Assembly: GCF_003790525.1 (NCBI RefSeq) | Contig: NZ_CP033635.1 | Origin: Escherichia coli | GTDB lineage: Bacteria > Pseudomonadota > Gammaproteobacteria > Enterobacterales > Enterobacteriaceae | DNA: 64,000 nt | Direction: 5' to 3' (one strand) | In this document: positions 1 through 10,711 of the stretch, piece after piece | Layout of the letters: every line of letters begins with the position of its first letter | How positions within the stretch are numbered: position 1 is the first letter of the stretch | The notes under the pieces: generated by a model | Seen by the model: only the letters and a program-made list of their open reading frames with translations | What the model was told of the DNA's origin: nothing | Databases searched by the model: none | Made by a program: the position numbers and the translations under genes

Positions 1-109
1 AGCGGCGAAAGTTTACGGACATGAATATATAACGCGCAGGATTAAAGGGGTTACGCAAACCAACGTGACAACAACAGACGACTGCGACGCGTTTTTATAG
101 TTTTAGACA

Positions 110-340
110 AAAGCCCTCTACCCCTTCTACCTTAAGAAAATAATTACATATATTTCATGTTGATAGATTGGGTAGATGGCAGGTAGAAGGTACTTAAAAG
201 CCCTCTACACCCTCTACCATAATTCAGGGCATTTGTGAGGGGGTGGTAGATGGCAGGTAGAGGGCCAAAAAAGCCCTCTACCCCGCTGAAATCCGCGCCA
301 TTACTGACCTGAAAGATGATTGTGTAGAGAGGTAGAGGAG
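110..340. repeat. Array of about 10 copies of a 9-bp motif CCCTCTACC / GGTAGAGGG in both orientations; candidate iteron-type origin or regulator-binding array of the upstream island
   Basis: Motif copies read at about 113, 123, 172, 182, 201, 210, 245, 256, 274 and 331. Confidence 0.5.
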
Positions 341-386
341 GTGCACCACAACACAAAACTTTTTAAACACGAGGGTAAAAATAAAA

Positions 387-644
387 ATGCACACATCAGA
401 AAAATTTAACAATCAGAAGAAATCACATAACCGCGCCATTGACCTTACAGAGCACTGGCTGAGGGTGGCGATAAAAATCATCGACCGCAACGCGGGAGAA
501 GGATACGCGAAAGCGCATCCCGAACTGATTAGCGCATTCATGACCACAGCGGCGGCAAACTTTGCCACGCTGACACAACGGGAGATTGCCGAAGCGGAAC
601 AGGTAACAACCATCAACGTTAAAACCAGTGAGGTGGAATCATGA
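387..644 (+). CDS. Hypothetical protein (island)
   Basis: 85-aa ORF; stop overlaps start of the next ORF (ATGA). Confidence 0.4.
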   Translation: MHTSEKFNNQKKSHNRAIDLTEHWLRVAIKIIDRNAGEGYAKAHPELISAFMTTAAANFATLTQREIAEAEQVTTINVKTSEVES

Positions 645-1051
645 CAGCACAGATAGCGGCTTACGGGCGGCTGGTGGCTGACCCGCAGTTAAAGACCACC
701 AGCAAGGGGACACAAATGGCGATGGCGAGTATGGCGGTCCCCCTTCCGTGCAGCCAGGCAGATGACGGAACGGCGACGATGTGGTTATCTGTGCTGGCGT
801 TTGGCAGACAGGCCGAAGCACTGGCAAAGCACCGCAAGGGTGAACTCCTGAGCGTGGCGGGTAACATGCAGGTCAGCCAGTGGACCGGACAGAACGGGGA
901 AACGCGGCAGGGCTGGCAGGTTATCGCAGACAGCGTAATCAGTGCGCGGACAGTGCGACCGGGCGGAAAAACACGCAAAACCACAGGCGCACAGGGGAAT
1001 AAGCCACCAGCGGGAGGCGATGGCCCCTACGGAGATGATATACCCTTCTGA
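641..1051 (+). CDS. SSB-like single-stranded DNA-binding protein
   Basis: OB-fold-like N-terminus, Gly/Pro-rich linker and C-terminal DDIPF tail as in bacterial SSB. Confidence 0.6.
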   Translation: MTAQIAAYGRLVADPQLKTTSKGTQMAMASMAVPLPCSQADDGTATMWLSVLAFGRQAEALAKHRKGELLSVAGNMQVSQWTGQNGETRQGWQVIADSVISARTVRPGGKTRKTTGAQGNKPPAGGDGPYGDDIPF

Positions 1052-1068
1052 ATCAGGCGGGGAGCAAC

Positions 1069-1389
1069 ATGAACAACAGCACACCGAAGAACCGGACAAT
1101 AAGCGACGCGACAGCAGAAGAACTCGAGAGCAGGGGACTGTGGCGACGGGCTGCCAGAAGGTGGCAGGATGTGATGATTACTCTTCAGGAAGACAGGCAC
1201 AGAGAACTTGCGGCAATGAGAGCAAGGGAATGTATCAGGAAGGCAAAGCGCCCGATACCTGAAAACCGTTATGATGTTCACGCAGTCAGAAGGGCCGCAG
1301 ACAGGACAATACAACAGATGGGGCTACCGTCGCTTACTGATGAAATATGGCGTGATTACCCTGATAACGTAAATGATGACGGTTATTAA
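1069..1389 (+). CDS. Small regulator, possibly PerC-family
   Basis: 106 aa with AEELESRGLWRRAARRW motif recalled from the PerC/Pch family; memory-based. Confidence 0.3.
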   Translation: MNNSTPKNRTISDATAEELESRGLWRRAARRWQDVMITLQEDRHRELAAMRARECIRKAKRPIPENRYDVHAVRRAADRTIQQMGLPSLTDEIWRDYPDNVNDDGY

Positions 1390-1468
1390 CAGGCGGGGAA
1401 ACACGACACCAGCGGGAGCGACACGGGGTAGCAGATGCCGCTGGTGGAACAGCACAAAGGGGGAGAAC

Positions 1469-2053
1469 ATGACAAAGCTGACCATTAACCGAAAACCAAA
1501 AGGCATATACGGCACACCGCAGAAAAAGACGCAGGAGGCTGAACAGCCGGATAAAACCACACCAGCGCAAAAGCAGAGCCGCGAGCAGAAAACACAACAG
1601 AAGACGGCAGCAAAACGCAAATCAGAAAAGAGCCGGAAAAAAAATATCAGACGCGTTGAACGCCTTGCCGCGCTCTGGCCTGAACTTTTCAGCCAGGAAT
1701 CGCCCAGACCGCTTAAGGTTGGCATATTTGATGACCTGATGGAGGATATTACTGCGAGAGGTATTTCATTAGGTCAGGGAGCGCTTCGCGCAACGCTGGC
1801 GTATTATGTCAGTTCAGTGCGATATTACCGTTCCCTGATGGCTGGTGGCGTGCGTTACGACCTGAAAGGCCATCCGTGCGGGGAGGTGACACAGGAGCAC
1901 CAGTTGAACGCGGGGAAGCGACTGGATGAGATGAAGAAAAAACAGCAGGAGCGCAGAAACATGAAGGCAGAAAATAAGCATAACGGTAAGCCACCAGCAG
2001 GGCATAATATTATTCTGAAAAATGCCAGTTCCTCGGGCGTACGGAAAGCATAA
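1469..2053 (+). CDS. ProQ/FinO-domain RNA-binding protein
   Basis: RPLKVGIFDDL and YYVSSVRYYRSL...GGVRYDLKGHPCGEV closely resemble the E. coli ProQ N-terminal domain; start at ATG 1469 after a GGGGGAG SD (ORF track starts at 1373). Confidence 0.7.
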   Translation: MTKLTINRKPKGIYGTPQKKTQEAEQPDKTTPAQKQSREQKTQQKTAAKRKSEKSRKKNIRRVERLAALWPELFSQESPRPLKVGIFDDLMEDITARGISLGQGALRATLAYYVSSVRYYRSLMAGGVRYDLKGHPCGEVTQEHQLNAGKRLDEMKKKQQERRNMKAENKHNGKPPAGHNIILKNASSSGVRKA

Positions 2054-2077
2054 AACCCTGACCACATGAAGAGACGA

Positions 2078-2105
2078 AGCCGGAGTAGTCCGGCTTTATT
2101 TTTTA
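2078..2105 (+). terminator. Intrinsic terminator after the ProQ/FinO-like gene
   Basis: agccggagtagtccggct hairpin followed by a T-run. Confidence 0.6.
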
Positions 2106-2110
2106 TGGGT

Positions 2111-2225
2111 CCTTTCCGGCATGTGGACCCGTTACGGGGCGGCGACCTCGCGCAAAACAACTCCTTATGAAATTTTTACGGGAAATTCAGATCCGTTCTT
2201 CTTTTTTGTAAGTCATTGTGTATAT
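2111..2225 (+). other. Lambda-type cos site (cosQ-cosN-cosB); cosN GGGCGGCGACCT at 2137-2148
   Basis: gggtcctttccgg...gttacggggcggcgacctcgcg...tatgaaatttt...ccgttcttctt matches the phage lambda cos junction as recalled. Confidence 0.65.
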
Positions 2226-2340
2226 TGAATTTTATTTGTTCTGAGAAAGGATCTGATAAGGCTTCGTTTCGCCTGAAAAGGCAGTTTTAAGATCCTTTCT
2301 TAAAAAAACGGGTCATTTTCTTGCTGGAGGGGATGCTGGT

Positions 2341-2925
2341 GTGAGGGTTAACAAGAAAAAGCTGGCTGAGATTTTTGATGTTGATGTGCGGACTATATCC
2401 ACCTGGCAAAATCAGGGGCTGCCGCTGATATCAGGCGGCGGGAAAGGGAATGAAGCGATTTTTGATACGGGAAAAGCGATTGAGTGGTTCGCTCAGCGTG
2501 AGGCCGACATTGAAAATGAAAAACTTCGTAAGGAAGTCGACGATATGCGCGTGGCTGCTGAGTCGGATCTGCAGCCCGGTACGATTGATTACGAACGCTA
2601 CCGTCTCACAAAAGCACAGGCAGATGCGCAGGAACTTAAAAACGAGCGCGATCGCGGTGACGTGATTGATACAGAGTTTTGCATGTACGCGCTTTCAAAA
2701 CTGGCGAGACAGATTTCATCAATCATGGACAGCCTCCCGCTTACTATGCAAAGGAGCTTCCCACAGATGACCCCCGCCATGCTGGATGGCCTGAAAAAAG
2801 AAGTTGTCAGAGCCTGTAACGCATGCACAAAACTTGATGAAAACATCCCGCGAATGCTGTCCGATTATCTGATGGAAACTACCGGAAATGTGCCTGATAA
2901 GTTTCAGCCGGATAAAGACAAGTAA
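2341..2925 (+). CDS. Nu1-like small terminase subunit homolog; no large subunit follows
   Basis: MRVNKKKLAEIF...GGGKGNE...ENEKLRKEV...LQPGTIDYERYRLTKAQADAQELKN tracks lambda Nu1 along its length; GTG start. Confidence 0.75.
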   Translation: MRVNKKKLAEIFDVDVRTISTWQNQGLPLISGGGKGNEAIFDTGKAIEWFAQREADIENEKLRKEVDDMRVAAESDLQPGTIDYERYRLTKAQADAQELKNERDRGDVIDTEFCMYALSKLARQISSIMDSLPLTMQRSFPQMTPAMLDGLKKEVVRACNACTKLDENIPRMLSDYLMETTGNVPDKFQPDKDK

Positions 2926-3086
2926 CGTAGTGCACAATGACCGAAGCCAGTTTACTGACTGGCTTTCAGCGTTGCGCTGGTGGGCGTTATGCGTCAGTGA
3001 TGAACAAAAAACAATCGAAATCGACACCGAAAAATAAAACATCAAGTCATATCAATATATTGCATTGGTGGTGATAACGAATAAAA

Positions 3087-3467
3087 ATGCAAAAACTAGC
3101 CTTTTTCCGCGATGCTCCCGCCCCGTGGCAGGGCACCCCACAAGGAGGACCCGCCATCACTATGGAGGACATGACCATGACCATGACCGAGACCGAAGCG
3201 ATCGGGATAATCCGCAGTATTACCGGAATCAGCCAGCAGGCTGGCGAACAGGAGGCCACGCAGCCGGACAGCGTGATAGCCGAAAATTACGCGTGTGTTG
3301 TTGCTGAGGTGATGCGCCGTGATGGTATTGAGCTTAACGGCGTGGATATGCGCAACATACGAACCAGAGTCCTTGAGTTGCTGGCATACCGTCGCCGTTC
3401 TCAACAACGGAGGGAGAGCGCGAAAAACACTTATCAGTGGAAGAAGCCGGAACGGTTGCGGCGGTAG
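3087..3467 (+). CDS. Hypothetical protein; start uncertain (possibly near 3162)
   Basis: ORF track; several in-frame ATGs with SD-like sequences. Confidence 0.3.
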   Translation: MQKLAFFRDAPAPWQGTPQGGPAITMEDMTMTMTETEAIGIIRSITGISQQAGEQEATQPDSVIAENYACVVAEVMRRDGIELNGVDMRNIRTRVLELLAYRRRSQQRRESAKNTYQWKKPERLRR

Positions 3468-4488
3468 ATTCCTGATATTCAGGAAAACCACGAATCCGGG
3501 GGTTTTACTGGCGCGGTGTACACGGTGGAACGCATAGCGTTACCTGACTTATTGCATTGTAAAAAGTTAGAAAGGCACGGCCTGTAAGATGGGATGTTGT
3601 GAGTAGTTTAAAGCTACCCGCAAATTCTTTCGTTGTGCTGGCACAGGCGGTTAAACCGTCGGTAACTGGATAATCCCCACTGGGGGAAAAGCTGGCTACA
3701 TCCCTCACATCTGAGGACTGATAATGCGACATTGCGCTGGCTGGTGGGTGAGTTGCAGATTTGCAACTCGACCATGAAACTACGGAAACTACCCGTAGTT
3801 TGGGTAGTAAGAGTAACACCCAGATTTTGGGGCTTACTCGCGATACCCAAATAAAGGGTATCGGTGGAAGAAATATCGTTTCTCATATGTAAGTACCGAG
3901 GGCGGAATTCCGCCTTCGGTTACTTATTGTGCTCATTCACAGGGAGGGGCGGGTCAAATCTCTGTACCCTGACGTCTTCAGGACTGCCCGCCCCATCGAT
4001 TTTTTATACCCGCGAAAAATGAAAAACGCTTCACGCTGGTGGGCCTGATGCCGATATGGGGAGCCGCATACCGGAGAATATCCACCAGCACGGCAACAGC
4101 AGAATAGCCCCGACACAGAAAAACCACGAATATGGGGTTTTTGTTATGGCATGGTCATGATGACCGCCCCTGCTCTGAATGGTGGAAATCACCACGCAGA
4201 TCATCCACCAGCTTCATGACGGATAGCCGGAAAATGATAATGATTAAAGCGTGTTGATCTTTGTTCGCGGTTGTTCGATATTGTTCGTGAAGCGGTGTAG
4301 TTAATGGTGTAGTTAATATCACTGTTTTTGACGGGCTTGTTATTTGCAACATAATGAAAAATAAAGACTAATTAACTAAATGATATAAGATAGTTATCTA
4401 TCATGTGGAGTAGATTGGTCAGGCAAATAAGCTCTTGTCAGCGGCAGGGCGTTCTGCCGATAACCGTAACCGAAGATGATAACTGACA

Positions 4489-8989: not shown

Positions 8990-10711
8990 TTACAAACCCT
9001 GCTTAAACTGGTAATAACGCCCCTGTCGGGCAAGCAGTTCTGCGTGAGTACCTTGCTCAATAATTTGCCCGTTGTCCATCACTATTATTTGCTGGAAACG
9101 AGAGAGCCCGCGAAGTCGATGGGTGACCATTAACACCGTTTTCTCACGCATCATTTCTGCAAGTAATTCAAGGATCTGACTTTCAGTTGTGGCATCTAAG
9201 CCTTCGGTAGGTTCATCCAGCAATACCAGTGGCGCATCATGTAACAGCGCACGGGCGATAGCCAGACGGCGCAGTTCACCACCGGAGAGCTGGCGTCCGC
9301 CTTCACCCAACCAACTGTTGAGACCTGCATCCTCGAGCAGCTTCTCCAGACCAACGCGACGCAAGATCTCCGCCAGAGCCTCATCACTACTATCAGGCGA
9401 GGCGAGTAACAGATTATCACGCAGCGTGGCGCTAAACAGATGCACTCGCTGTGGCACAACGCTGATGGTCTGTCGTAGAGTCGCTTCATTCAGGCTGGCT
9501 ATGGGGCTATCGTTAAGCAAAATCTCGCCCTGTTGCGGGTCCCATGCGCGGGTCAGCAGTTGTAACAATGTTGATTTGCCGCATCCGGTTCGCCCGAGAA
9601 TCGCTATATGTTCTCCGGCGTTTACCTGAAGAGAAATCCCTTTAAGTGCCTGTTGGGATTGCTCTGGATAAGTGAACTGAACATCCCGTAATGTCAGCGA
9701 AACACGATCGGCAACACGAGTTTGGGTATCAGGGAAGGTGACTTCCGGTTTTTGATCCGTTAAGTCAGTGATCCGTACGGCAGAGGCAATGACTTGCCCC
9801 AGATGCTGAAATGCACCCGTTACTGGTGCCAGTGCTTCAAACGCGGCTAACGCGCAGAAGACAAACAGGGCAATTAACGCGCCGGGTTGAGCATTGCCGC
9901 CAACGCCGCCAGACGCCATCCACAGCATCAGGATCACCGCTAACGCGCCAATGAGCAGCATTATCGCTTGCGACAATGCGGTGAGTTCAGATTGACGACG
10001 TTGCGATTCCAGCCACTGAATTTCGGTATTCTCTAACTGCGTGCGATAACGATCGCTGGCACCAAAAATGGTCAGCTCAGCTTGCCCTTGCAGCCAGGCC
10101 GTCAGTTGTTGGCGATACTGCCCGCGAAGATGAGTCAGATTTTGCCCGGTGCTTTTTCCCGCACGATAAAACAGTGGTGGCATAAGGAAAAGCGTCAGTA
10201 ACATAATGCCGCCCAGCGTAAAGGCGAGGGTGAAATCAAGGAAACTTAACCCGATTGTCACCACCATAATCACCACAAAAGCGCCCACCAGCGGCGAGAT
10301 AACGCGCAGGTAAAGATGATCGAGCGTATCAACATCCGCCACCACGCGGTTGAGCAATTCGCCCTGACGATAGCGCGCCAGTCCGGCAGGGGAGAGGGGC
10401 AGCAATTTGCTGAAGGTATAAATGCGCAGATGCTGCAACACGCGGAAAGTCGCGTCGTGACTTACCAGGCGTTCAAAATAGCGCCCGGCAGTACGGGTGA
10501 TTGCTGCGCCACGCACGCCCGCAGCGGGTAGCATATAGTTGAAGCTGTACAGTCCGGCAACCCCCGCAACCGCTGAGGCGGAGAGGAACCAGCCCGAAAG
10601 TGTCAACAGACCGATGCTGGCGAGCAGCGTGACAATTGCCAGCACAATACCAAGACTTAACATCCATTTATGACGTTTATACAGTGCCAGATAGGGTAGC
10701 AAAGCGCGCAT
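8990..10711 (-). CDS. cydC: Cysteine/glutathione ABC exporter subunit CydC
   Basis: N-terminal 6-TM domain plus C-terminal ABC ATPase (GRTGCGKST, LSGGE). Confidence 0.9.
   Translation of the reverse strand: MRALLPYLALYKRHKWMLSLGIVLAIVTLLASIGLLTLSGWFLSASAVAGVAGLYSFNYMLPAAGVRGAAITRTAGRYFERLVSHDATFRVLQHLRIYTFSKLLPLSPAGLARYRQGELLNRVVADVDTLDHLYLRVISPLVGAFVVIMVVTIGLSFLDFTLAFTLGGIMLLTLFLMPPLFYRAGKSTGQNLTHLRGQYRQQLTAWLQGQAELTIFGASDRYRTQLENTEIQWLESQRRQSELTALSQAIMLLIGALAVILMLWMASGGVGGNAQPGALIALFVFCALAAFEALAPVTGAFQHLGQVIASAVRITDLTDQKPEVTFPDTQTRVADRVSLTLRDVQFTYPEQSQQALKGISLQVNAGEHIAILGRTGCGKSTLLQLLTRAWDPQQGEILLNDSPIASLNEATLRQTISVVPQRVHLFSATLRDNLLLASPDSSDEALAEILRRVGLEKLLEDAGLNSWLGEGGRQLSGGELRRLAIARALLHDAPLVLLDEPTEGLDATTESQILELLAEMMREKTVLMVTHRLRGLSRFQQIIVMDNGQIIEQGTHAELLARQGRYYQFKQGL

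Follow-up and report, generated by a model that had tools for sequence, protein, structure and literature searches.

Organization of the island

The locus belongs to an EcCICFT073-type cos PICI, which measures 10.4 kb between its att repeats and occupies a site between cspD/yljB and clpS. The order of its components is primase, iteron-containing origin of replication (ori), SSB, PerC, ProQ/FinO, terminator, lambda-type cosN and Nu1-like TerS. The following features were identified in the window, i.e. the whole stretch of 64,000 nt that was analysed (Escherichia coli contig NZ_CP033635.1, assembly GCF_003790525.1), to which the coordinates refer unless stated otherwise.

~1-100: 3′ end of the primase gene
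109-340: replication origin; iterons AAAAGCCCTCTACC(N) and inverted GGTAGATGGCAGGTAGAGGG copies around an AT-rich spacer
387-644, + strand: conserved 85-aa hypothetical protein (phrog_1231; PHROGs E=1.8e-46), the first gene past the ori
641-1051, + strand: SSB (NCBIfam TIGR00621, 55.4 bits vs a cut-off of 53.95; PHROG 44)
1069-1389, + strand: PerC-family small regulator (RefSeq name; PHROGs 994 and 10396, "transcriptional activator")
1469-2053, + strand: ProQ/FinO-domain gene (194 aa, ATG start, TAA stop)
2076-2106, + strand: predicted intrinsic terminator, GAAGCCGGAGTAGTCCGGCTTT then ATTTTTTAT, closing the hyp85-ssb-perC-proQ operon
2107-2340, + strand: lambda-type cos region, with cosN at 2137-2148 and a presumed cosB between cosN and terS
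2341-2925, + strand: Nu1-like TerS (PHROG 57, E=7e-65; PDB 6hn7_B / 1j9i, lambda TerS N-terminal domain, E=1.7e-40)
3183-3467, + strand: hypothetical protein of 94 aa, conserved (phrog_1561); its gene is the last one in many PICIs
3700-4005, + strand: structured non-coding right arm, a chain of ~7 hairpins ending with GGGGCGGG...CCCGCCCC and a U-tract terminator
4293-4317: attR core CGGTGTAGTTAATGGTGTAGTTAAT, marking the right island end (direct-repeat search)

The ori, located directly 3′ of the primase gene, contains direct repeats of families D1-D3 and inverted pairs I1-I13 (repeat search), a layout that agrees with the described origins of Gram-negative PICIs (PMC6092414). The gene of the 85-aa protein precedes that of SSB in many related islands, and the PerC homologues of neighbouring related loci are assigned to Pfam PF06069. 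The terminator at 2076-2106 has a predicted folding energy of -24.7 kcal/mol (z=-4.3), and an equivalent structure (GCCGGA-N4-TCCGGC plus a U-tract) is located past the ProQ/PerC module in other islands. The lambda cosN sequence GGGCGGCGACCT at 2137-2148 lies 84 nt past the ProQ/FinO stop codon, and from ~2100 onwards the island is homologous to the lambdoid-phage cos-Nu1 region. The initial annotation placed the ProQ/FinO gene on an island and next to cos; both statements are confirmed by its position inside the PICI, where it is followed by the terminator, cosN and the Nu1-like TerS gene.

The right arm (MFE -129.3 kcal/mol, z=-7.0) gave no Rfam match. Parts of it occur, unannotated, in 2139 of 5426 genomes and are not specific to ProQ-carrying islands; its consensus fold is shared by 6 diverse copies, among which 4 compensatory pairs were noted. 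The attL copy of CGGTGTAGTTAATGGTGTAGTTAAT lies just before the integrase gene (positions 7945-7969 of L001, the full-length island).

The element contains int, alpA, the primase module and the iteron ori in canonical order, and carries no tail genes, lysis genes or full head set; its length falls within the ~10-15 kb expected of such islands. As read from its sequence, it is an EcCICFT073-type PICI with a predicted cos/packaging function of its own.

The ProQ/FinO-domain gene and its product

The gene is preceded by the Shine-Dalgarno sequence GGGGGAG (1459-1465). Homologues of the encoded protein share the N-terminus MTKLTINRKP, beginning at the chosen ATG, which favours this codon (1469) over the upstream ATG at 1373. 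A promoter scan revealed no sigma-70-like promoter between the ori and the gene, and expression of the latter is therefore probably tied to the induced operon.

The initial annotation ascribed a ProQ/FinO domain to the protein and pointed to a Pfam profile search as the means of refuting this. The search assigned the domain (PF04352) to residues 63-163 with E=1.7e-26 (92.7 bits; model positions 8-107 of 109), and revealed no second Pfam domain C-terminal to it. Sequence matches in PDB are the N-terminal domain of ProQ (5nb9, 4e-18), FinO (1dvo, 2e-15) and RocC (7rgt, 2e-12). All 26 Foldseek PDB matches with E<=0.001 are FinO-domain structures (FinO, RocC, NMB1681 and a Legionella ProQ homologue); target TM-scores among these matches reach 0.83, and the best match is FinO.

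The protein may be divided into five segments: (i) a disordered basic tail with a conserved LTINRKPxGIYG motif (residues 1-44), (ii) an N-terminal helix (45-69), (iii) the FinO core (70-141), (iv) a long C-terminal helix (142-171) and (v) a tail unique to this variant (172-194). The Lys-rich N-terminal extension, recognized in the initial annotation, was also found: residues 1-62 contain 14 Lys and 6 Arg (pI 11.0). In the AlphaFold model residues 11-48 are predicted to be disordered, followed by the helix 45-69; the FinO domain has a pLDDT of ~85-95, and the 31 residues beyond the profile-matched region correspond to the end of a helix and a disordered tail (pLDDT ~53-61).

In the RocC-RNA structure, a Tyr/Arg/Gly pocket clamps the 3′-terminal nucleotide of a terminator-type hairpin, and the helix N-cap S70-K71-S72-K73-L74-R75 contacts the hairpin backbone (PMC9674577). 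Tyr119, Arg129 and Gly85 of the island protein align with the corresponding residues of ProQ (Y70/R80/G37) and RocC (Y87/R97/G52). Among 18 aligned family sequences neither Y119 nor R129 varies and G85 is almost unchanged, and across Escherichia, Citrobacter and Salmonella 33 positions, including the RNA pocket, are invariant. The N-cap reads G-Q-G-A-L-R: the capping Ser is replaced by G102 and the two Lys by Gln and Ala, so the strength or specificity of binding may differ. The N-cap Arg is retained as R107 (Arg, Lys or, once, His within the family). FopA, a proven RNA binder, also has a deviant N-cap (T-M-D-E-W-L), and thus this change does not disqualify the island protein.

We conclude that 1469-2053 is a real gene, owned by the PICI and not by the host, for a predicted RNA-binding protein of the FinO/ProQ type. 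Its FinO domain is intact and has a conserved 3′-end pocket, on the basis of which RNA binding is predicted.

Distribution and genetic context in related islands

Of 5426 complete E. coli genomes, at least 995 (at least 18%) contain detectable homologues. At the DNA level these genomes gave 1388 matches, every one of them on the chromosome and none on a plasmid. Among the 30 plasmid matches sampled, 28 were FinO (31-34% identity), the exceptions being an unannotated 17.9-kb E. coli record (61%) and a ProQ/FINO protein of a Sodalis plasmid (36%). No close homologue was detected among 50,697 phage records, the best matches originating from Sodalis and Shewanella phages (32-36% identity). A phage or plasmid origin of the gene was considered and rejected, since the phage relatives are distant and the sampled plasmid matches are almost all FinO. 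The gene family is common in E. coli and the domain call is routine, already made in RefSeq, where the product of 1469-2053 is named "ProQ/FINO family protein".

A survey of the neighbourhood of 89 loci carrying the gene (51 unique protein sequences) revealed that, in at least 37 of the unique loci (41 if primase matches more than 1.2 kb away are included), the upstream neighbour is the gene of SSB or of primase. A PerC-like gene is located downstream in 36 of the 51, and a + strand terminator within 1.5 kb of the gene end in 38, mostly 280-410 nt past it, after perC. In the island described here PerC is encoded upstream of the ProQ/FinO gene, and not downstream as in most islands. In most relatives the ProQ/FinO stop codon and the PerC-like start codon overlap. 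Relatives of 41-47% identity keep the gene order, with ProQ and PerC ORFs that overlap by 17 and 8 nt, and the related locus L020, whose ProQ-then-PerC arrangement is the commonest one, has an ATGA stop/start overlap. The operon behind the primase gene and the ori has the ProQ/FinO gene as its final or penultimate cistron. This position is constant even among islands that have different integrases, att sites, packaging modules and primase types (D5, DUF927, other). Within its own clade, the gene has long been a resident of PICI-type satellites, at a fixed position.

The location directly behind the primase-ori-SSB module might be taken to indicate a replication-linked or other non-regulatory role, e.g. 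on primer RNA or R-loops at the ori. Alternatively, the gene could have no current function and be a decaying passenger, with which the truncated and partial copies found in databases (entries of 113-135 aa) would be compatible. We consider such explanations very improbable in view of the strong conservation of the protein, including the 33 invariant positions with the RNA pocket, and of the maintenance of full-length ORFs in hundreds of genomes. Moreover, we know of no FinO-domain protein that acts directly on DNA replication intermediates, which counts against the replication-linked variant.

Relationship to EcCICFT073 and a sister island

The island shares with EcCICFT073 a backbone composed of int, alpA, YlcI (in minus orientation), an Icd-like gene, DUF4222, primase, iteron ori, the 85-aa protein, SSB, PerC, cos and the conserved last gene of ~94 aa. 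The two are 79.5% identical at the nucleotide level over the primase-3′/ori/ssb region. Furthermore, the segment 2071-2152 is 90% identical to a region of EcCICFT073 (L092, 15496-15574) just upstream of an RppA-sized gene, and the segment 2107-2183 matches a second, inverted copy in that element, which has two cos sites (PMC6739421). The terminator-cosN stretch is therefore homologous to the EcCICFT073 region in which the RppA-dependent cos site is expected. The islands differ in that EcCICFT073 (i) is devoid of the ProQ/FinO gene, (ii) carries capsid and decoration genes and (iii) contains a 144-aa gene of RppA size and position (the length of RppA being taken from PMC6739421), where the island described here encodes a full-length Nu1-like TerS.

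Two further proteins were considered as counterparts of known PICI products. Identification of the 94-aa product of the last gene as RgdR was dropped: RgdR (C1493/ECs1581) is a 99-aa protein with RGD at residues 20-22 (PMC3378721), and the genes examined near the replication module (c1499-c1503) have higher locus numbers, which suggests that RgdR is located further left in EcCICFT073. A 168-aa protein encoded near the end of many ProQ-positive islands, considered as a possible Rpp, gave no sequence match in PDB.

EcCICFT073 replicates, is packaged and is transferred efficiently (PMC6092414, PMC6739421), and the ProQ/FinO protein is therefore dispensable for the basic PICI cycle. Its gene appears to occupy an exchange site of accessory modules, since a sister island at the same att site (L002) contains capsid, decoration and HTH genes in place of PerC and ProQ. 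Both observations would be expected of an accessory regulator which, together with the PerC-like protein, is directed at host genes, e.g. those of virulence, motility or stress, and serves "conversion" instead of the life cycle of the island. Such a protein might bind host sRNAs and mRNA 3′ ends, extending the host ProQ regulon or competing with it. Host genes are known targets of regulators carried by PICIs of this type, LEE expression and motility being affected by RgdR and some PerC homologues (PMC3378721, PMC6092414, PMC11773190). Moreover, FinO pockets read a generic terminator shape (PMC9674577), which makes host terminators plausible ligands. However, with no promoter of its own detected, and apparently located inside an induction-dependent operon, the gene would be expressed mainly in cells about to lyse; its tight linkage with primase and SSB over deep divergence would also be unusual for cargo. 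We therefore regard a primarily host-directed function as rather unlikely.

Search for a cognate RNA and proposed role

No cognate RNA of the protein was identified in the searches described below. An Rfam scan of the whole island (E<=1) revealed no family within it, the single match being the cspA thermoregulator in the cspD flank, outside the island. C4 antisense, IsrK or int-alpA RNA motifs are present in some related islands; they are missing here and so cannot be a general partner. Scanning of 70 unique ProQ/PerC modules for antisense hairpins with a U-tract gave nothing recurrent antisense to proQ or perC, the output comprising lineage-specific minus-strand matches and the bidirectional terminator after perC. 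An analysis of suppressed synonymous change, performed on 56 unique genes that are too closely related for this purpose, pointed to no region that stands out. The perC-proQ spacer and an antisense hairpin at 1647-1683 form mildly stable predicted folds (z of -2.9 and -2.5, respectively). Neither did any paper in the literature consulted link ProQ/FinO to E. coli PICIs.

We tentatively propose, with a probability of about 0.45, that the protein is a FinO-type RNA chaperone belonging to the regulatory equipment of the satellite itself, most likely acting on satellite transcripts. According to this proposal, the helper phage would turn on AlpA and the rightward operon of the island, and the protein would be produced together with SSB and PerC. 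It would then bind hairpin-plus-3′-tail structures on satellite transcripts, shielding them from 3′ exonucleases or speeding up their pairing with complementary RNA. As a result, the programme leading from replication to packaging of the satellite might be tuned, by analogy with the action of FinO on FinP/traJ and of FopA on Inc/repZ in their respective plasmids. The characterised element-borne FinO-domain proteins, FinO and FopA, target an RNA pair of their own element (PMC9977716, PMC7491321). Three candidate ligands may be indicated: (i) the operon's own terminator (2076-2106), (ii) the convergent, 3′-overlapping transcripts around alpA (L001, 9888-10012) and (iii) the multi-hairpin RNA of the right arm (3700-4005). 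Each of them is also present in islands devoid of ProQ, i.e. the sister island L002 and EcCICFT073.

Satellites commonly manipulate gene expression of their helper phage, and the protein could instead be a factor in conflicts with other mobile elements. In this case the targets might be structured RNAs of the helper, such as lambda OOP or late-leader RNAs, the helper being biased towards lysis or hindered; alternatively, the protein might stand in for FinO on the FinP-type antisense RNAs of F-like plasmids. Its FinO-like architecture over the full length would suit such a function, and the presence of cosN and a Nu1-like TerS indicates that the island parasitises lambdoid cos phages. RNA cross-regulation between satellite and helper has a precedent in PLE/ICP1 (bioRxiv 10.1101/2022.04.08.487710), and both FinO and RocC accept "foster" RNAs of other elements (PMC9977716). 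However, PADLOC matched no known defence-system protein among ProQ, PerC, the neighbouring small proteins and the large downstream ORFs of P0005-type islands. The family also spans islands whose packaging modules differ widely, suggesting that their helpers differ too; this argues against one specific helper RNA as the target. This conflict function appears improbable to us.

A bolder idea is that, in a large fraction of enterobacterial PICIs, the ProQ/FinO-PerC pair constitutes a two-layer switch, operating on RNA and on transcription, that would reprogramme helper or host RNAs upon induction. For example, it might stabilise a terminator-ended helper RNA and so force or time lysis, or displace host ProQ from its ligands. 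We consider this improbable; if true, it would be the first RNA chaperone encoded by a phage satellite and acting in the satellite-helper conflict.

The presence of such a gene in satellites bears on the biology of both PICIs and FinO-domain proteins. The latter make up one of three main classes of sRNA chaperones in bacteria, and, to our knowledge, the element-borne representatives studied to date are all plasmid-encoded. PICI biology, in turn, has been explained so far via AlpA, Rpp, TerS, capsid-remodelling factors and similar proteins. The presence, in at least 18% of complete E. coli genomes, of a FinO-type gene at the end of the replication operon, usually coupled in translation with a PerC-like regulator, points to regulation of the satellite at the RNA level. 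Being small (~170-200 aa) and carried by a 10-kb element in which ligands may be sought first, the protein may also constitute a compact natural system for studies of target choice by FinO domains. Furthermore, strains carrying such islands possess one to several additional FinO-domain proteins, a possible complication for work on the ProQ regulon of pathogenic isolates.

Comparison with ProQ, FinO and FopA

The initial annotation described the protein as a mobile-element copy of a global RNA chaperone, sharing ProQ motifs nearly residue for residue. The second statement proved to be exaggerated: identity with ProQ is ~40% (39-40% over 114 residues) and the N-cap differs. The first one is not supported either. 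The protein scores below the cut-offs of both the ProQ equivalog model of NCBIfam (NF003434; 76.4 vs 127 bits) and the FinO model (NF010317; 75.6 vs 136 bits), has no Tudor-like domain and aligns with FinO from end to end; in an NJ tree the island proteins form their own clade, apart from ProQ, FinO, FopA and RocC.

For the FinO core, the best sequence match is ProQ, with which the island protein shares the motifs RPLK(V/I)GIF, SS-RY and R-x-DL-G-PCGE. In contrast, the N-cap is S-K-T-x-L-R in ProQ and G-Q-G-A-L-R in the island protein. The island protein also lacks the linker and the Tudor-like C-terminal domain, which are components of ProQ (PMC5393179), and possesses a basic N-terminal extension of 62 residues that is absent from ProQ. 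Moreover, ProQ is a chromosomal global chaperone, whereas the island gene is found in a fraction of strains only, sometimes in several copies.

With FinO (31% identity) the island protein shares its location on a mobile element and its architecture, i.e. a basic flexible N-terminus, an N-terminal helix, the FinO core and a C-terminal helix, with no added domain. In the BLASTP alignment residues 4-167 correspond to residues 9-181 of FinO, and the aligned region includes an N-terminal L-T-[IL]-x-R-K motif. The two proteins differ in the N-cap (G-x-G-x-L-R vs S-H-K-K-L-R of FinO), and the island gene is never located on plasmids in complete E. coli genomes and is not accompanied by a tra operon; no FinP-like antisense RNA could be identified.

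FopA (YafB), encoded by the IncI plasmid pCol1B9, differs in sequence (~30% identity over 115 residues), in its branch of the tree and in its N-terminal region, which is unrelated to that of the island protein. It is nevertheless similarly element-encoded and of similar size (~200 aa), with a positively charged region before the FinO domain and no C-terminal domain (PMC7491321). FopA is the chaperone of Inc/repZ and controls, by means of an antisense RNA, the replication of its own plasmid (PMC7491321).

The ProQ/FinO protein

The ORF located at window positions 1469-2053 (+ strand) encodes a protein of 194 residues, and its ATG is preceded by GGGGGAG (1459-1465). An alternative ATG at 1373 would lengthen the ORF; the start at 1469 is favoured, since homologues in other islands share the N-terminus MTKLTINRKP and the RefSeq start is also placed at 1469. 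The initial annotation had proposed a ProQ/FinO domain, to be checked by a profile search, and this search confirmed it: Pfam PF04352 (ProQ/FinO) was assigned to residues 63-163 (E=1.7e-26). The NCBIfam ProQ and FinO models both match the protein (~1e-21), and its sequence matches in the PDB are the ProQ N-terminal domain (5nb9, 4e-18), FinO (1dvo, 2e-15), RocC (2e-12) and NMB1681. In an AlphaFold model built with 18 family members as input, the core (residues 60-160) has a pLDDT of ~85-95; residues 11-48 (pLDDT below 50) form a disordered N-terminus, followed by a helix at 45-69, and there is a long C-terminal helix at 142-171. All 26 Foldseek matches in the PDB at E<=0.001 are FinO-domain structures, so the fold agrees with the profile, and the evidence for the domain is consistent between methods. 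The domain call is thus correct, but it is already present in RefSeq, where the product is named "ProQ/FINO family protein" (WP_029400542.1).

The carrier island

Five complete E. coli genomes contain a near-identical copy of window 1-4480. The complete island of strain TUM1886 (10.4 kb) is inserted between cspD/yljB and clpS and has a 25-nt direct repeat at both ends; attR corresponds to window 4293-4317.

Features of the island, in island order (window coordinates)
Left part: integrase, AlpA-like regulator, two small leftward genes, Icd-like protein, DUF4222 protein and primase, in this order
109-340: iteron origin directly 3′ of the primase gene, with three copies of AAAAGCCCTCTACC.. and three inverted GGTAGA(T/A)GG.. 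around an AT-rich spacer
After the origin: 85-aa protein, SSB, PerC-family regulator (1069-1389, +) and ProQ/FinO protein (1469-2053, +), in this order
2076-2106: intrinsic terminator, downstream of the ProQ/FinO gene and ahead of cos
2137-2148: cosN GGGCGGCGACCT of a lambda-type cos
Downstream of cos: Nu1-like TerS (PDB match to lambda TerS, 1.7e-40)
After TerS, last in the island: gene of a 94-aa protein

This backbone is common to, and collinear with, that of the experimentally studied cos PICI EcCICFT073, with 79.5% identity over the primase 3′ end, origin and ssb, and 90% over the stretch from the terminator to cosN. The shared backbone, the att repeats and the cosN site bear out the earlier description of the gene as island-encoded and adjacent to cos. 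EcCICFT073 itself contains no ProQ/FinO gene, as judged from its annotation and by tblastn.

Distribution and gene neighbourhood

With E<=1e-5 as the threshold, a 90%-cluster database yielded 136 relatives; almost all have 160-215 aa and come from Escherichia, Shigella, Salmonella or Citrobacter, and one relative cluster occurs on at least 1000 contigs. At least one copy was found at the DNA level in 995 of 5426 complete E. coli genomes, which is a lower bound for homologues. The copies occupy 1388 places (up to nine per genome), all of them chromosomal and none plasmid-borne. For comparison, the backbone segment from the 85-aa protein gene to ssb is present at 2583 places in 1828 genomes.

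Reference island proteins were mapped onto 89 gene-carrying loci: 80 IMG/VR contigs, eight loci from genomes and the reference island itself. The ProQ/FinO gene is always oriented along the main operon. SSB or primase precedes it in at least 37 of 51 unique cases, a PerC-like gene lies immediately 3′ in 36 of the 51, and a strong terminator on the + strand is located beyond, typically 280-410 nt past the gene end. ProQ-then-PerC is the commonest arrangement, and in one locus (L020) the ProQ stop overlaps the perC start codon (ATGA). Even relatives that share only 41-47% identity retain the order primase-(SSB)-ProQ-PerC, with their ORFs overlapping by 17 and 8 nt. The overall pattern persists although the islands differ in integrase, att site and packaging module (Nu1-like TerS, capsid plus decoration, and others) and use three types of primase. 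The window island has the inverted order: PerC, a 79-nt spacer, then ProQ. The adjacency to cos is therefore particular to this island, and the linkage to the replication operon and perC is general.

Tandem pairs of ProQ/FinO paralogues (213 and 152 aa) are present in four Salmonella islands (L008-L010 and L089). In islands of the commonest ProQ-carrying type (P0005; L003-L007, 9564-16356), three large ORFs (~840, 600-690 and 820-920 aa; 24-73% identity between islands) lie downstream of the ProQ module. They have no Pfam or PADLOC match and may be uncharacterised cargo, perhaps for defence.

The gene is the last or penultimate cistron of the post-primase operon, is often translationally coupled to perC, and no promoter of its own was detected. 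PICI expression is AlpA-dependent (PMC6092414). We infer that a helper phage would trigger AlpA-dependent production of the ProQ/FinO protein, which would bind hairpin-3′-tail structures, stabilise or anneal satellite transcripts and so fine-tune the step from replication to packaging; we assign this reading a probability of about 0.45. It is improbable that the ProQ/FinO protein has a replication-linked role, or lacks a function.

Exchange of modules between islands

A sister island with the identical att site has major-capsid, decoration and HTH genes in place of PerC and ProQ. This PICI occupies the cspD/yljB-clpS site in many E. coli genomes, and the replaced segment extends from the PerC-ProQ block to the middle of terS (L002 12848-14634 versus window 1052-2612). 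The PerC-ProQ block is also joined, with 97-98.5% nucleotide identity, to other packaging modules in four related islands (L011-L014). In L012 and L013 the same block is fused to capsid and decoration modules. On either side of positions 2152-2613, L011 and L014 match the window at 98-99% identity, but within this interval they are wholly different. The interval comprises cosB and the DNA-binding N-terminal half of TerS, and its divergence suggests that a cassette for packaging specificity has been swapped.

Since EcCICFT073 lacks the gene and the sister island replaces PerC and ProQ, comparison of the islands indicates that the ProQ/FinO gene is not required for the basic PICI cycle, which probably explains its absence from the PICI literature. 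A dispensable gene could be host-directed regulatory cargo working with PerC, and the PICI regulators RgdR and PerC are known to affect the host (PMC11773190, PMC6092414, PMC3378721); we consider this role rather unlikely.

The searched literature appears to contain no description of this clade (i) as a gene that holds a fixed position in EcCICFT073-type PICIs and is usually coupled to perC, (ii) as occurring in about one in five complete E. coli genomes, or (iii) as absent from the model island EcCICFT073. The fixed position, the abundance and the absence from the model island make it a reasonable experimental lead rather than a surprising finding.

Search for an RNA partner

The characterised element-borne FinO-domain proteins all act on RNA of their own element, i.e. 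FinO on FinP/traJ and FopA on Inc/repZ (PMC9977716; PMC7491321), and a partner was therefore sought in the island. We consider it unlikely, more so than the host-directed role, that the protein is aimed at RNAs of the helper phage or a plasmid, for which satellite-helper RNA cross-talk in PLE/ICP1 offers a precedent (bioRxiv 10.1101/2022.04.08.487710).

No Rfam family was found in the window island at E<=1; some related islands contain, inconsistently, C4 antisense RNA, IsrK or the int-alpA RNA motif. C4 copies and IsrK lie upstream of the primase in the Salmonella island L008, and both also occur in the E. coli-type locus L036. The Rfam motif int-alpA RNA (RF02996) separates int from alpA in several islands that carry ProQ (L003 963-1030, L020 2870-2937, L086 699-767) but is absent from the window island.

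A scan of all loci for hairpins followed by a U-tract revealed (i) a conserved operon-end terminator, GCCGGA-N4-TCCGGC plus U-tract, and (ii) a conserved leftward terminator pair between the alpA/antirepressor genes and a YlcI-like gene; no recurrent antisense terminator was found within or beside the proQ-perC module. Among 56 unique, closely related copies of the gene, no stretch with reduced synonymous change stood out. The leftward terminators, GGCCACCG..GGGTGGCC and GCGCTCCGG..GGGGCGC, show compensatory variants and lie ~105-125 nt apart (L028, L036, L045, L056 and others; L001, the full-length copy of the island, 9888-9907 and 10212-10238). The interval between them might correspond to a small RNA. 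The outer hairpin of L001 is situated ~30 nt past the alpA stop and a + strand hairpin is present at 9970-10012, which gives convergent, 3′-overlapping transcription with alpA. At the divergent YlcI/Icd-like junction, the adjacent palindromes GTGTTAAACAC and GTGTTGAACAC, followed by T8 (L001 10475-10507, L020 5994-6024, L045 6087-6115), look more like an operator pair bound by an island regulator than like an RNA hairpin.

The right arm of the island (window 3467-4290) comprises 820 bp of non-coding DNA. Its core (3700-4005, + strand; ~300 nt) folds into ~7 near-perfect hairpins (-129 kcal/mol, z=-7.0), ends in the terminator GGGGCGGG...CCCGCCCC plus U-tract, and has no Rfam match. Parts of the arm are present, unannotated, in 2139 of the 5426 E. 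coli genomes. They invariably follow the ~94-aa gene that comes last in PICIs of several types, capsid-forming ones among them, and the structure is kept in six diverse copies with four compensatory pairs. The arm could represent either a structured RNA without an earlier description or a long 3′ UTR. The operon-end terminator, the leftward terminators and the right arm also occur in islands without the ProQ/FinO gene, so none of them can be regarded as a specific partner of the protein.

Comparison with ProQ, FinO, RocC and FopA

The initial annotation had regarded the protein as a mobile-element copy of a global RNA chaperone, a view that the comparisons do not support. The protein is ~40% identical to E. 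coli ProQ across 114 residues and 31% identical to FinO across 179; the values for RocC and FopA are 33% and 30% (the ProQ and FinO sequences used are consistent with the PDB alignments; FopA was taken from pCol1B9). The NCBIfam scores are far below the curated cut-offs of both models, at 76.4 (cut-off 127) for ProQ and 75.6 (cut-off 136) for FinO. In a neighbour-joining domain tree, the Escherichia, Citrobacter and Salmonella island proteins form their own clade, separate from ProQ, FinO, FopA and RocC. A search of 1.84 billion 50%-identity representatives gave 2580 matches at E<=1e-3 and two at E<=1e-30. Judged by sequence, the island proteins thus constitute a narrow clade within a very large superfamily, and the protein is not a copy of host ProQ.

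In the RocC-RNA crystal structure, the 3′-nucleotide pocket is formed by Tyr87, Arg97 and Gly52 (PMC9674577). The equivalent Y119 and R129 are invariant in the family alignment, and G85 is nearly so. The helix N-cap is G-Q-G-A-L-R in the island protein, compared with S-K-S-K-L-R in RocC and S-K-T-Q-L-R in ProQ; the Arg is retained, but neither the capping Ser nor the lysines are. As FopA, a proven RNA binder, likewise departs from this motif, the change possibly reflects a difference in specificity, not a loss of function.

Unlike ProQ, the island protein has neither the linker nor the Tudor-like C-terminal domain. It aligns nearly end to end with FinO, including the basic N-terminal part, which in the island protein contains 20 Lys+Arg per 62 residues (pI 11.0). 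Its architecture is within the known range of the family, to which this distinct, satellite-borne clade is therefore an addition.
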